A program made the position numbers and the translations under genes. A DNA stretch of 62,634 nt, counting the filler, from Rhabdomonas costata (lineage: Eukaryota), in assembly GCA_019059605.1 (NCBI GenBank). It is 40 parts of 40 records of this genome, joined end to end, with 100 filler letters (N's around TTAATTAATTAA, not from the genome) between each part and the next. Parts side by side here need not be neighbours in the genome. Positions count along the whole stretch, not along the records: positions 58,031 to 59,498 come from JAHMHO010015169.1; 39 more parts are not named here. One strand, written 5' to 3'. The notes beneath the pieces were generated by a model. That model was not told the DNA's origin and searched no databases. It worked only from the letters and a program-made list of their open reading frames with translations. This document shows, piece by piece, positions 55,151 to 62,348 of the stretch (the stretch's first letter is position 1; each line of letters starts with the position of its first letter).

Positions 55151-58095
55151 GTGCCCGGGGCGTTTACCCTTGAACAGTTGTGGGGTGCCTTGTCTGCCCA
55201 GCTGTGAGATGTCATCGATCTGTGATCTGTATCACCAGCTAGCTTGATGTTTCCACTGAGCAGTTATTGTCTGTATACAGATGACCGTCCTGCAGCTGGG
55301 GGGTTTTCCCTGATACAGTCGTACCGTCTTTTTCCCGTTTCCTGATTGCGCGCCGTGTTGACGGGAAGGTGGGCAGTGTTTGCTTTTATAGTGTGTGGAG
55401 TAAGGATACAAATGGTCCGTCACGCTCAGCTGGGGGACAAATCCATTACGAATATACACACCTGAAAATCACGAGAATTGTGAAGGGAGGGGAAGAGAGG
55501 GAGTCTTTCCACCATTACTCTGCAATCGCAAGGGTACAAGGTGAATATTCGACCAGAACTGAAAGCTAGCAATGTTCAGATGTCCCTTATTGCCCGTTCC
55601 TTGGAGATGCTTCGCGGGGGACACTTTTTACTTGGCGAATCGGAAGGATTCCAAGAAGCCTTCACCTCCGGTACTCTTTGTAATGCCCCTCACACTCACA
55701 CACCCGCTTTCTGTGTTCTCTTCTTCCACTTCTCAGTGTCGTGGTATGTAAATGAATGGAGAAGAAAACCTTCGCCTTTCTGGGCTTGAGTCCTGCCGGC
55801 TGTTCTCGGAGTGAGCACTTCGGGTTAGGCTTACGCTGACGTCGCTCCCCCTTCTTTGTTTGTGTGCGTGCATAGTCTGTGTGTAAAATGGGTGCCGCGG
55901 CGGTGGCTTCGGCATGCCCTCAGGCGGTCTCTGCCGCCTCGCAGGTCCAGTCGGCGCTGCGCCTGCGCGAGGTGCCCTCCCCCTTTTTGGCACAGAGGAA
56001 GCGGCAATGAATGAATGAAGTATTCGTGTATTGGACTTCTGGTTTCAGTTTTTGAGCAAGAAATAGAACTCGTTTTTGTTGCGCAATGCCGATAGACGTT
56101 GTGTACAGCACTGTAGGCAATGAAAAACAGAGGCACAAAGACAAGGACAAACCAACAAGCGCATAGAGGACAGAGCACAGATCTGTGAGGTTCGAGTTAT
56201 GTATCCGAGCGTCCTTCATCTCAAGATTCGCATTCCGTGTCCTCCAACCAGAGTGGGGCCAGAGTTGCCATCATGCCTGAGCCAGACTGTGAAAATGGGC
56301 TCGAGCCCATTTCAGTGCCTGACAGTATCCGTACCGGTCTTTACCCTTTATGCCCAACAACANNNNNNNNNNNNNNNNNNNNNNNNNNNNNNNNNNNNNN
56401 NNNNNNTTAATTAATTAANNNNNNNNNNNNNNNNNNNNNNNNNNNNNNNNNNNNNNNNNNNNGTGGTGGGGTGGTGGGCTCGGAGCTGGTCATCCCCGAG
56501 CCGGACTCCACCCCCAGGGGAATCGAGGAGCCCCGGGCGACCTCCTCCACCTGAGCGTGGGGTGAAGAAGGGATGAGTTCGGCCCACAGGAGTCAATGGA
56601 GAGGAATATACAGGAGTGTAGTGGAGTGAGAGGATTGGACAGAGTGCAGAGCAATGCAAGGATGAGTTCACAGGAGTCACAGAAGAGCAGACCAGAGGAG
56701 TCCAGAGGCATGAACCAGAATGCAAGAATGGCTGGGTGAGCGCAAACAGCGTGGGCATCATCGCAAAAAAGATATCACTCTCCTAACTTCCACGATATGC
56801 TGCAGGCACCTGCCCAAAAAGGTCTTGAACATTTTCTGGACAATGGAAGACTCCTGTCTCGCTCGGCAGCGTGGGAGTGCCAGCCAACAATACCTCTATG
56901 GTAAGCTGCAGCACCTCGTGGTGGAAGCAGGCGTGGATCTCCCGAGTGAGGGCTTGCGTGCTGACGTGGTCTCCATCTGCTCGGACCCTGGGAAAAGGCA
57001 AGTTTCTCGCCCCAAAGGTCGGTTCACGGCACCTAATACCTCAACCCATGGACGTGAGACAAGTCATTGGGGTGCACTGCGCATCAAGGAAACCCAAATT
57101 CGGCCGAAGAGGCCCGCGTCTAGTGACTTTAACATTTGCCTTGGTGACACGAAAGAGCACCCCCACACACACAAAAACACACAGAGAATTGTGTGGAAGG
57201 ACTGGCATCCTTTCACCCCAGGTGTGCCCCTTGCTCGGACTCATTCAGCTGGTCGGGGGTCGCTGGCTCAGGAGCGGGCCGTGCCTTCTTGTTGGCCATC
57301 GTCGGGCGCGGCTATCCAGGCTCCATTGTCATCCATTGCTGTCCACCTTCACCACGTTCCCCGCCTGGGCCTTCCACGGGCTGTGAGCTGCCTCAACCGG
57401 CGTCGATGACGGAGTGGATGACCTGCCTTTCAAGTTCGAGTTTAGCCCACCCATCGTCTCGGGCACCACCGGTCCACCGTGAAGGGTGAAAAAGCCAGCG
57501 TCGAAGACAACGCTCAGGTTGAGTATTGGTGACGCTCCAAACAGGAGGAACGCACCCCCCCCCCACACACACGCGCGCAAACGAACCTCACACTGCCCAC
57601 AGTGCTGCCCTCCGCGAGGCTCCAAAAGTGCGCCGTGGGGGCCTGCAGCACACCCTCCATGCAGGAAACCTTTTTGAAATCATTGGTGAGAGAGTGTGTT
57701 TGCGTGCCTGCGCGCGCGTGTTGGGCGCACTGGGCGCTGGCTGTTGCCTGGTTGAATGGTTTGCTTGGCGCTTGGTTGTTGGTGACCACCAAACAAAACT
57801 GTGTACTGACGGGCGCTGTTGGTCACGCCTCCGCGAATGTCTTGCAGGTGTTTCGCTGAAGAAGTCCCCCTTTGGTTTTCTTGTCTTCGCGCGCGCTTGC
57901 ATGTGTGGAAACTCGAAAACATTCACACACNNNNNNNNNNNNNNNNNNNNNNNNNNNNNNNNNNNNNNNNNNNNTTAATTAATTAANNNNNNNNNNNNNN
58001 NNNNNNNNNNNNNNNNNNNNNNNNNNNNNNGGGGTGGTTTTTGTACCACGATTGTGAAACAGAAAAAATTAAATCAACTCTCTTACCTACTCCAA

Positions 58096-58981
58096 ATTCC
58101 GATTCCTCTATTTTACTGTGATGAATTACTTCACTTTGGAGTAGGTAAGAGAGTTGATTTAATTTTTTCTGTTTCACAATCGTGGTACAAAAACCTTATA
58201 CAAGTAGTTGGTTCTGTTGGTTCAGTATTAGGAACATACACAGTCACAAATAAAAACAGTGGATTTTCTAACAGCACTATTAACGTCTCAATGTTGGATA
58301 TGAAGCTATACTTAAATAGGTGCTATATCGGTAAGTCCTACGTACCACGTAGTATCAAAGCAACCTGTCATATGAAACAGTTTTCACCAGTTATCGCAAA
58401 TCTCAACAATAATTCATCTACTACAACTGTTACTGGAACGTTTGATACTGGCGGGCGCGTTTCTCATATTATTGTTGCTTTTAATGTGAATCCTTCCCTC
58501 TATCCTCATTACAGCCCCACTGATTTTTCCTGTGGCTATGTTGATGCGTCTGGAAATGCTGCAGTTTGTGAAGCAAAAAATACAACAGACGCAGTTACTC
58601 TTATTAAACAGATCCAAGTTAAGCACGGAACGTGTATTTATCCTCAAGAATCATATAGTCTACAAACTGACGGGACTACTGGATCAACCAACACAAATGA
58701 TTTATATCGCTGCTATCAAGATTATTGCATCATGTGTGATGCTCTGAGAACGCCATGTGGGGCTCTTCTTTCATACAGTGAGTGGCAGTGCAACCCAATT
58801 TTCGTATTCAAGAATAAAGCTTCTCTGAATGAGTGTTTGTGTGGATCTAAACGGTCAACTAGGAATACCAACTAATATAATCATTCTTGGGCTCTATGAT
58901 TCTTATCTAACATTTGAATACAATGAATATGCAGAGGTTATAAATATGATACCATCTAGTGCACCTCCTCTATTTGAGTAA
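58096..58981 (+). pseudogene. Double-jelly-roll major capsid protein, C-terminal part, of a Polinton-like virus/virophage-type element; frameshifted near 58830
   Basis: AT-rich, intronless, beta-rich. Motif order: IPLF..D..L, DMKLYL, VSHIIVAF, IKQIQVKHG..YPQESY, DLYRCYQDY, GALLSYSEW..PIFVFK, then in the +1 frame (58829-58981) NIIILGLYDSYLTFEYN. Bases 58036-58096 are a fold-back artefact. Confidence 0.72.
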
Positions 58982-59012
58982 GTAAGATGTGTATAAAATT
59001 ATTTTCTTTTGC

Positions 59013-59021
59013 AATAGTATA
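59013..59021 (+). promoter_or_regulatory. Candidate viral promoter motif AATAGTATA (second copy at 59410-59418)
   Basis: An identical 9-mer ends 7 nt and 3 nt before the ATGs at 59029 and 59422. Confidence 0.45.
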
Positions 59022-59028
59022 AAACAAA

Positions 59029-59367
59029 ATGGTGAACAGTATTTCATACCAATTAGGAAAGGTTGGACATCGTGTGGCTGGATTTGGGGTTAGACGACTT
59101 CCAGTTCGTAGGACTGGTCGTGGACCATCTAAAACTACACTTGTTAAACGCATTGCTAGTGCCCTATTGGGAACTGGAACTCGTCGCAGACGTACTTTAC
59201 GTGGTTCTAGCTACAAACTCAGCGGACAGGGTAGACGCCCTCGTTCAACTCTATCAACCCGCAGGACATACAGACGTCGCACTACAACTACACACAGACG
59301 CCCACGTGTTACATTATTAGGGCTAGGCAGGAAGCGAACATATCACCATCGACGGATTATGTATTAA
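59029..59367 (+). CDS. Arg-rich viral core/DNA-condensing protein, adenovirus pVII/mu-like
   Basis: 112 aa with 27 Arg, 5 Lys and no Asp/Glu; LLGTG, LSGQG, LLGLG (and VAGFG) each precede an Arg cluster; lies directly after the capsid gene. Confidence 0.7.
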   Translation: MVNSISYQLGKVGHRVAGFGVRRLPVRRTGRGPSKTTLVKRIASALLGTGTRRRRTLRGSSYKLSGQGRRPRSTLSTRRTYRRRTTTTHRRPRVTLLGLGRKRTYHHRRIMY

Positions 59368-59371
59368 GCAA

Positions 59372-59405
59372 AAGATTTTAGATTAGAATTTTAATCTAAA
59401 ATCTT
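59372..59405 (+). terminator. Perfect 14-bp hairpin just after the core-protein stop codon
   Basis: AAGATTTTAGATTA-GAATTT-TAATCTAAAATCTT, beginning 5 nt after TAA. Confidence 0.6.
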
Positions 59406-59421
59406 ATTTAATAGTATATAA

Positions 59422-59498
59422 ATGAACAAATACAAAATTCTACAGGAATACAACAAAAACTTGATGTATATAGATGATGTTTTAAATAATTCAGCAAC
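59422..59498 (+). CDS. 5' start of the next viral ORF, possibly the maturation cysteine protease
   Basis: MNKYKILQEYNKNLMYIDDVLNNSA, open to the contig end. The protease call rests on recalled N-terminal resemblance and context only. Confidence 0.35.
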
Positions 59499-61166: not shown

Positions 61167-62055
61167 GCACCCCGAGGGGCACGCCATCATCTCAACGAAG
61201 TGGTAGGTCTTCTGTTTGTTCTTGATCCAGTCCATGACCTGAACATAAACAGTGCAGGAAAAGGGTTGGGAAAGGGGGGCCCAAGAAAACGCAAAACATG
61301 CTTGGCAAAGCCGCCTCGCGCACCACAAGGAACACTGATCATCAGCCACAGGCAAGAATTTCGCTGGAATGAGATTTGCTTGCCCGCCAGCCCGCCTTTC
61401 AGTCATTCCGTCAAACTTCACCATCATGATAACGCCCCCTCATGGAAGCAACGACAGCTGGCCCTCAGAGAAGGTTGTTCTTGGGTTCCTAGGGGAATAC
61501 CAGAATGCAACCCTTCAGGCCTTTAGGGGGGAGAAAGGGCCAGTGTTGCGCGAGCGTAACAATGCAGGTCGGTCAATCTCACGCTCTTTTCCAGTAGTAA
61601 ATCCAAACCTTGTGGACATTCTTGCCCCCGCTTGCAATGCAGATGTTGATGTTGGTGCCCCCAACCTGAGCACAAAGCGAGTTTAAGCGACAAGTACATA
61701 TCCATTGTAATACGATCACACACTTGGCAGTGGCAAAAGTAACTGTGTTCTTTGCGAGTGTCAAAGTGAAGCAACGAAAGGCAGAATGCATCTACAGTGG
61801 GAAGCAATCGGGAGCAGAAAGGGATGGATATGAGAAATCTTGTGGCATTTCTGGGCGCTTTTTTCTCAGAGAATTCAAAGCATGATGGAATTGTGGGCAC
61901 CTCAATGGTCGCTTCCTTGATTCCGTCAAGGCCTCGGCAGGCGTGGAAGTCAAGGGGCAGGGCCTTGCCCGTGACGGTCTCGTAGGCGGTACGCAGGGCA
62001 GCCTCCATCACACCACCAGTGACCCCAAACAGCGACGCCGCTCCGGTGGAGCGCC
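61167..62055 (-). CDS. hydA: [FeFe]-hydrogenase H-cluster domain, three exons (62055-61901, 61665-61609, 61238 to contig end)
   Basis: [24 protein letters not shown]...[25 protein letters not shown]|...[17 protein letters not shown] introns join in phase 0. [14 protein letters not shown] separates HydA from Nar1/NARF. Confidence 0.93.
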
Positions 62056-62348
62056 CTGCAGCCAAAAGCAGCATCGCCATAGCATAGCTCAAGACAAGGA
62101 CCGTGGGGAAAAAGCCCTATCATCCGTTGTAGCCCCACTCGGCATATATCGACAGCGCAGTTCAATAATGTTTTCGAGCTCGGTTGTAAACACTGGTTGG
62201 TCTGGCTTCGTCCAAAGAAAGAAGTGTCCCAAGTGTGTATTCATGACAGCAGCAGAAACAATTGTTCGCTGTAGCGGAATGCATTTCTCATGGGGCATGC
62301 CCGCTCATACTCACACATAAAAGTTATATGTGTAAACAATTTACAGCA

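Follow-up and report, generated by a model that had tools for sequence, protein, structure and literature searches.

A free-standing family of basic candidate core precursors with adenain-type glycine motifs, encoded between the capsid and clan CE protease genes of polinton-like viruses

The mavirus protease is reported to cut the basic tail of its capsid protein at four GG|X or GX|G sites; one of the tail fragments contains a predicted amphipathic helix, and the tail region was proposed to bind the genome (PMC6048507). The same source gives a two-form cleavage rule (xGG/x, xGx/G) for adenain and the mavirus protease (PMC6048507). In adenovirus, mu is described as cut into hydrophobic and basic pieces (PMC7998265, PMC8156859), and pVI has an N-terminal peptide that binds the hexon cavity as well as an amphipathic lytic helix (PMC8156859). 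The C-terminal cofactor of pVI is freed by a cut at IVGL/G, and its hot spots are Gly1' and Phe11' (PMC4246237). The adomavirus protein LO6, in which (MIL)XGXG motifs are present, seems to be cleaved in virions and has been put forward as a pVI-pX fusion (10.1101/341131). Domains resembling pX occur in adintoviruses, and a figure of other MELD viruses labels one gene as pVI-like (PMC8502044). Here we describe a locus that, like mavirus, belongs to a protist double-jelly-roll (DJR) virus and has a basic region with several GG/x or Gx/G sites, predicted ones in this case. Unlike in mavirus, where the basic region is fused to the capsid protein, it forms a separate gene directly downstream of the capsid gene, and a profile search of the PDB found no sequence similarity between mavirus and the protein family described below.

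The window, the whole stretch of 62,634 nucleotides that was analysed, consists of 40 unrelated contigs of ~1,468 bases each, separated by N-linkers, from the Rhabdomonas costata assembly GCA_019059605.1 (104,289 contigs). The contig at 58031-59498 (JAHMHO010015169.1) is the sole AT-rich one, with a GC content of 0.375 compared to 0.48-0.58 for the others, and this 1.5-kb contig is viral. On its + strand, it holds the 3' part of a DJR major capsid protein (MCP) gene (58093..58981), a 112-aa ORF for the candidate core precursor (59029..59367) and the first 26 codons of a clan CE, adenain-like protease gene (59422..59498), whose frame is cut by the contig end. The contig start contains an inverted copy (58036..58096) of ~58135-58195, found as a reverse-orientation match. 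Positions 58031-58079 are covered by no sequencing run, and loose ends at 58093 run on into other sequence; the inverted duplication is an artefact. Further downstream, near 58,831, the capsid gene shifts frame at a place that lacks bases present in the sister copy on contig L002. An ORF at 58054 that had been considered as a 273-aa gene was rejected, as its start is the duplication artefact and its end the frameshift.

Translation of 59029-59367 (+) yields a protein with 27 Arg, 5 Lys and no Asp or Glu, in which ~30% of the residues are Arg or Lys. The earlier note had given 27 Arg and no acidic residues, as well as the motifs LLGT/G (aa 46-50), LSGQ/G (64-68), LLGL/G (96-100) and VAGF/G (16-20), all of which proved correct. 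It overlooked a fifth and equally conserved GxG motif, RTGR/G (28-32), and its statement that an Arg run follows each motif needs a small correction, the basic stretch after VAGF/G being RR only. Its term protamine-like fits only some of the protein, in which hydrophobic segments of fixed length are found as well. Shuffling the protein 100,000 times with its composition preserved gave 0.20 [MIL]xGxG motifs on average, compared to three in the ORF (P(>=3)=4e-4); if Val is also accepted at P4, P(>=4) is 3e-5. Ten of the 13 glycines are located within GxG motifs. Comparison with the sister copy in L002 showed 79 identical codons, 15 synonymous and 9 non-synonymous differences, and this mostly synonymous divergence shows that the frame is under selection.

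A word-index search found four homologues of the core protein, and a profile built from 17 sequences matched 83 clusters at 50% identity among 1.84 billion sequences. The core ORF is real, conserved and part of an unannotated family. Pfam has no family for it and gave merely scattered chance matches for 74 core members, none of which matched an adenovirus Pfam family at E<=0.1, a comparison with limited power for such short, biased proteins. A PDB search with the core profile, equally affected by short length and biased composition, returned three chance matches and no pVI, pVII or pX similarity, and the best score in an atlas search with the core protein was 0.80, below lead level. We found no description of the family in the main texts of the papers searched; annotations of polinton-like genomes in supplements could name the gene.

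The 83 members, with an R+K content of 12-33%, contain 179 strict adenain-type sites compared to 41 expected, with at least two sites in 56 members and none in six. Their GG pairs lie below the shuffle expectation (93 vs 142). Since the core profile itself contains the motifs, the enrichment in these homologues is partly circular, and loci found via the protease alone were therefore used as well. Sixteen such metagenome loci, which escape the circularity and represent about eight lineages, were obtained; two of them start within the protease and were set aside, and among the 14 checked upstream one has 55 bases there. A basic ORF with GxG or GG motifs precedes the protease in all 13 informative loci (10 whole and 3 partial, several being near-duplicates). 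In the core proteins, 70% of the glycines sit within GxG or GG, compared to 40% expected; the corresponding control values are 16% vs 20% for the MCP and 12% vs 19% for the protease.

An alignment of 74 sequences was assembled from the window protein, three other copies in the assembly, the four word-index matches and 66 of the 83 profile matches, leaving out mainly fragments and N-extended calls. The columns conserved in at least 90% of the sequences are M1, V2, L9, G18, G20, G30, G32, G48 and G66; the Gly motifs, the conservation of which had been named as a point to check, thus show the strongest conservation in the family alignment. Of the 74 members, 67, 69, 68 and 69 keep sites 1, 2, 3 and 4 intact, respectively. 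A second virus lineage in the same assembly (L016:205-462, L019:107-379, L010, L011) has a shorter and Lys-richer core gene, and this divergent lineage retains the four Gly motifs and a 27-aa helix.

Each site has its own profile. Site 1, VAGF/G (aa 16-20; 59074..59088, +), has the family consensus [IV]-[TS]-G-F/G, with GxG or GG in 67 of 74 members, Ile (48) or Val (13) at P4, and a nearly fixed Phe at P1 (60/66). Site 2, RTGR/G (aa 28-32; 59110..59124, +), is kept as GxG or GG in 69 of 74, with a mostly non-hydrophobic P4 (Thr 19, His 16, Val 8, Arg 6, Ser 6). Because this conserved site lacks a hydrophobic P4, the specificity looks looser than that of human adenain. Site 3, LLGT/G (aa 46-50; 59164..59178, +), appears in the family as Gx/G or GG/x in the same register (47 and 21 of 74, respectively), with Ile, Val or Leu at P4 in 68 of 68; put differently, Gly occupies P1 or P1' in 68 of the 71 members that have the P2 Gly, all with an aliphatic P4. 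Between the near-identical copies L029 and L030, two of the five amino-acid differences convert ITGGA to ITGTG at this site, and the swap between xGG/x and xGx/G agrees, at the level of sequence, with what adenain specificity would predict. Site 4, LSGQ/G (aa 64-68; 59218..59232, +), is conserved as well (63 Gx/G and 6 GG/x of 74; P4 Leu 37, Ile 12, Pro 10, Val 7). The adenain-type consensus is therefore conserved at sites 1, 3 and 4, with a mostly aliphatic P4 that is often Val, and site 2 is exempt from it. Site 5, LLGL/G (aa 96-100; 59314..59328, +), is one of a variable number of C-terminal repeats and is lineage-specific, the sister copy L002 having TLGG/M there. A contig from a public run, which may be the source sample, matches 59193-59390 with 0 differences, which rules out an assembly error in the LLGLG region. 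Cleavage at site 5 would release a 13-aa basic peptide that starts with Gly and ends with Tyr.

Across the 74 aligned members, parts of fixed length alternate with variable basic parts, in the order of an 18-aa N-terminal piece, a basic linker, a 27-aa segment, and then basic tracts of free length. The non-basic N-terminal segment (aa 1-19; 59029..59085, +) has a family median of 18 aa and an R+K content of 9%, and is a candidate propeptide or capsid anchor by analogy with the N-terminal peptides of pVI and pVII (PMC8156859). Between sites 2 and 3 lies a hydrophobic, probably amphipathic helix (59125..59169, +), present here in a short form: G32 to G48 spans 16 residues in the window compared to 27 in 56 of 65 members, so the window lineage is 11 residues shorter. 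The 27-aa segment is 47% aliphatic or aromatic, and its periodicity peaks at 90-100 degrees (by column permutation, p=0.034 over the last 11 residues and 0.064 over the first 14). For single sequences, 11-residue windows gave p 0.02-0.21, and the hydrophobic moment over the whole inter-site segment was not above shuffles in any of 17 sequences (p 0.32-0.53). At the C-terminus, a basic residue followed by 2-4 hydrophobic residues ends 47 of 74 members, whereas 1,000 shuffles averaged 4.6 such members and reached 13 at most; the pattern was chosen after inspection of the data. Cys occurs in the last 10 residues of merely 2 of 74 members. A complex prediction for the MCP with core residues 1-50, run without alignments, scored 0.00 and speaks neither for nor against a contact.

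The final 107 bases of the contig (59392-59498) recur without a single difference at the end of contig L008, also from this assembly, where a whole 155-aa protease frame is found (L008:994-1458, - strand) with His78, Asp99, Cys133 and a Glu at the usual Gln position. Structural comparison of the model of the sister protease in L002 (P0008, 142 aa, pLDDT 90.6) gave adenain (4wx4) as the best match, with a VIA Z of 10.2 and an rmsd of 2.6 over 113 aligned residues, tied with OtDUB (Z 9.9) and ASFV pS273R (Z 9.4) and followed by other CE-type proteases; the Foldseek E of 3.6e-3 to adenain is weak taken alone. In 113 aligned proteases, H77 is present in 109, D92 in 105, Q120 in 97 and C127 in 99, most misses being gaps or partial sequences, and an HW..YDS stretch aligns weakly with SENP8 (E 0.7). 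Judged by the modelled fold and the residue order His-Asp-Gln-Cys, the neighbouring gene encodes a clan CE protease, a point that the earlier note had raised for checking at the ORF at 59422. By sequence, the Peptidase_C5 cut-off of Pfam (21.3) was not reached by the L008 protease (13.8 bits, E 0.048), P0008 had no C5 match, and a PDB sequence search with the protease alone or its profile gave nothing significant. The assembly contains 40 protease matches. In the window-linked lineage (L008, L003), Glu replaces the family Gln, which we take to be the oxyanion-hole Gln, and five of the 113 database homologues show the same replacement. The 32 strict adenain motifs in the 113 proteases all fall at one place, residues 20-24 of P0008, just after the N-terminal helix; GxG or GG is present there in 45 of 103 covered sequences, and over half, including P0008, are without it. 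A self-cleaved propeptide is possible at this position.

The MCP of the sister contig (P0007, 479+ aa; mean pLDDT of the model 72.5) resembles the capsids of PBCV-1, SGIV and Sputnik, with Foldseek E values of 1e-13. By VIA, it is closest to PBCV-1 (Z 18.8, rmsd 3.8, 312 aligned), Faustovirus (Z 18.5), Sputnik (Z 17.9) and mavirus (Z 16.1), compared to Z 10.3 for the adenovirus hexon, and its atlas neighbours are mostly viral. The modelled fold thus identifies the upstream gene as that of a DJR capsid protein. Pfam gave no match for the window MCP frames, P0007 or two related MCPs. A cleavable basic tail of the virophage kind (PMC6048507) was found on none of the full-length MCPs: the full-length ones among 19 homologues end at the last strands, and these 19 contain two strict sites compared to 7.7 expected. 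Virophages have been delimited by an MCP score of at least 50 on ICTV virophage HMMs (PMC9952930). A viral contig collection yielded 72 protease and 43 MCP pattern matches, none of which was confirmed, so a full-length genome with termini was not obtained.

The sister contig L002 (2,750 bases) carries the order MCP, core, protease and Walker A ATPase; the last is the partial ORF P0009, which has a Walker A motif and matches Pox_A32 with an E of 0.021, below the cut-off. A 10-kb relative, L034, encodes an rve integrase (E 2.6e-13), a papain-family peptidase, a GIY-YIG nuclease and, next to the integrase, a 1,445-aa replicase (L034:3516-7850), for which Pfam matches SF1 helicase families only and PolB-like motifs were seen by eye. 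A retroviral-type integrase, seen here in L034, and a protein-primed PolB are traits of Maverick-Polintons (Polintoviricetes). The element is a small polinton-like DJR DNA virus with a maturation protease and belongs to the polinton/virophage supergroup (Preplasmiviricota type). In six relatives (L032, L033, L034, L035, L037, L040), a papain-family (C1) peptidase gene lies just downstream of the clan CE protease gene (Pfam E 3e-10 in L034), which places two proteases in one small virus; it is often preceded by a conserved ORF of 73-93 aa with a KPIKRVH-like motif. In L037, a DUF3627 gene (209-1093, - strand) is found on the opposite strand upstream of the protease, apparently between the protease and the core end.

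Between the core stop and the protease ATG lies a 15-bp hairpin (59372..59405, +), with an RNA fold z=-4.5 and 0 of 200 shuffles as stable. Hairpins with z<=-2 occupy this spacer in 11 of 13 loci, in unrelated sequences, and L028 has five in succession; hairpins before the core gene are not general (z<=-2 in 2 of 13 loci). Mimivirus and Sputnik are reported to use hairpin polyadenylation signals (PMC6723459), and for this reason the hairpins may hint at giant-virus-type transcription. The sequence AATAGTATA precedes both the core ATG (window 59012-59031) and the protease ATG (59411-59424), and in several relatives the core ATG follows AGTATA or a TATA-rich variant; the shared sequence is a possible late promoter.

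The window copy itself may be decaying, as its capsid gene is frameshifted and the linked protease has Glu for the usual Gln. The three sequencing runs that hold the sequence represent one sample, which may be the source and so gives no independent support; its contigs show both forms at the capsid break and at least three core variants. None of the listed sequencing runs that contain the sequence is an RNA run. Elsewhere in the assembly (L043:1315-1905, L048), decayed capsid fragments with stops adjoin GC-rich, host-like coding DNA, which suggests an old, past integration, the alternative being chimeric contigs. The sequenced eukaryote is the likely host of the virus. Another, host-like contig of the window contains a group A [FeFe]-hydrogenase fragment (61898-62092, - strand; E 1e-17), the match stopping at a possible intron, and this fragment suggests an anaerobic eukaryote.

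We propose that the ORF encodes an internal (core) precursor within a conserved capsid, core and protease block. The precursor would probably be packaged whole, with its Arg/Lys tracts neutralising the genome. During maturation, cleavage by the clan CE protease would probably follow P1 in the motifs (I/L/V)-x-G-x/G and (I/L/V)-x-G-G/x, and the looser site 2 is probably cut too. This would yield an N-terminal peptide that is not basic, the amphipathic helix, several basic peptides and, from the C-terminus, a basic peptide whose end is hydrophobic. Against this proposal stand the mostly non-hydrophobic P4 of site 2, the deficit of GG pairs, the six members that have no strict site and the lack of sequence similarity to pVI, pVII or pX. 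A GxG motif need not be cut, however, since two GXG sites of mavirus showed no detectable cleavage in vitro (PMC6048507). Altogether, we estimate a probability of about 80% that the core precursor enters the particle together with the genome and that the protease encoded next to it splits it into basic and hydrophobic peptides, which would loosen the core from the shell and prepare entry.

Other explanations have to be weighed against this proposal. Given the inverted duplication at the contig start and the frameshifted capsid gene, the core ORF might be a chance or artefactual frame in a chimeric contig, but the intact homologues in the assembly and in metagenomes, the mostly synonymous divergence and the kept synteny leave this virtually no credibility. 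It is also conceivable, though improbable, that the Gly motifs act as hinges or cap helices in a nucleic-acid-binding protein that is disordered and stays uncut, and that the protease has other substrates. Such a protein would explain why site 2 is equally conserved outside the adenain P4 rule, and the near-fixed P1 Phe of site 1 suggests a binding role beyond cleavage. Hinges, however, need neither an aliphatic P4 nor a Gly at P1 or P1' in one register, as seen at site 3, and they leave the coupled GA/TG switch between L029 and L030 unaccounted for. Moreover, as the MCPs offer almost no sites, the protease would be left without an obvious substrate.

A further explanation accepts cleavage and thus overlaps with our proposal of a packaged and cut precursor, but assigns the protein a mainly pVI-like role, with a membrane-breaching helix and a C-terminal protease cofactor, the basic tracts being a DNA tether or nuclear import signal instead of bulk condensing elements. 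We regard this assignment as tentative and rather unlikely. It accords with basic tracts that vary in length beside an N-terminal piece fixed at 18 aa and a helix that measures 27 aa in 56 of 65 members, with the post hoc pattern of basic-hydrophobic tails, and with the release of adenovirus pVIc at IVGL/G and its need for Gly1' and a terminal Phe (PMC4246237). Nevertheless, the amphipathic signal is modest (pooled p 0.03-0.06) and negative over the whole segment, the window lineage is short of 11 helix residues, and ~30% Arg/Lys in the window protein is as in condensing proteins. In addition, Cys is found in only 2 of 74 tails, compared to the strictly conserved Cys10' reported for pVIc (PMC4246237).

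Set beside the described systems, the core protein shares with pVII and pX (mu) the Arg-rich composition, clan CE consensus sites and a non-basic N-terminal propeptide-like segment (PMC7998265, PMC8156859). It differs from them in having four to five sites in ~110 aa, with P4 often Val or Thr, and the virus belongs to another lineage than adenovirus, its capsid fold being closer to PBCV-1, Faustovirus and Sputnik than to hexon. As in pVI, the predicted order is propeptide, amphipathic helix and basic C-terminal peptide, with xxGL/G release and an aromatic end (PMC8156859, PMC4246237); compared to pVI (250 aa), the core protein is less than half as long, far more basic and without a conserved tail Cys. 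The parallel to pVI, drawn by analogy, is a resemblance in layout and not homology. Adomavirus LO6 and the adintovirus PLA2X, GasderminX and Cupiennin are likewise small virion genes beside capsid and adenain genes (10.1101/341131, PMC8502044), a likeness drawn from their descriptions; all of these belong to animal viruses, and the core protein has no enzyme or gasdermin domain. The adenovirus-like core strategy that the earlier note saw in a protist virus is supported but not new, as mavirus provides a precedent (PMC6048507). The principle itself thus has precedents, one of them in a protist virus; the novelty lies in a precursor family that is free-standing and unannotated, with a readable specificity and a pVI-like layout.

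More speculatively, and with the odds clearly against it, a single gene of ~110 aa might do the work of pVI, pVII and mu together, supplying a capsid-docking peptide, a membrane-breaching helix, condensing Arg peptides and a pVIc-like cofactor tail, and, as the free-standing counterpart of the cleavable virophage capsid tail, might be a living intermediate between virophage tail processing and adenovirus core genes. Maturation proteases are annotated in many polinton-like viruses, and we found a shown substrate only for mavirus among protist viruses and for adenoviruses and adomaviruses among animal viruses. The core family and its neighbouring protease form a small candidate protease-substrate pair, the specificity of which is visible in natural variation. 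These findings suggest that core precursors are what the unannotated basic ORFs of 80-150 aa between capsid and protease genes encode. Should the pVI-like modules prove true, the family would bear on the origin of the adenovirus core and entry proteins.
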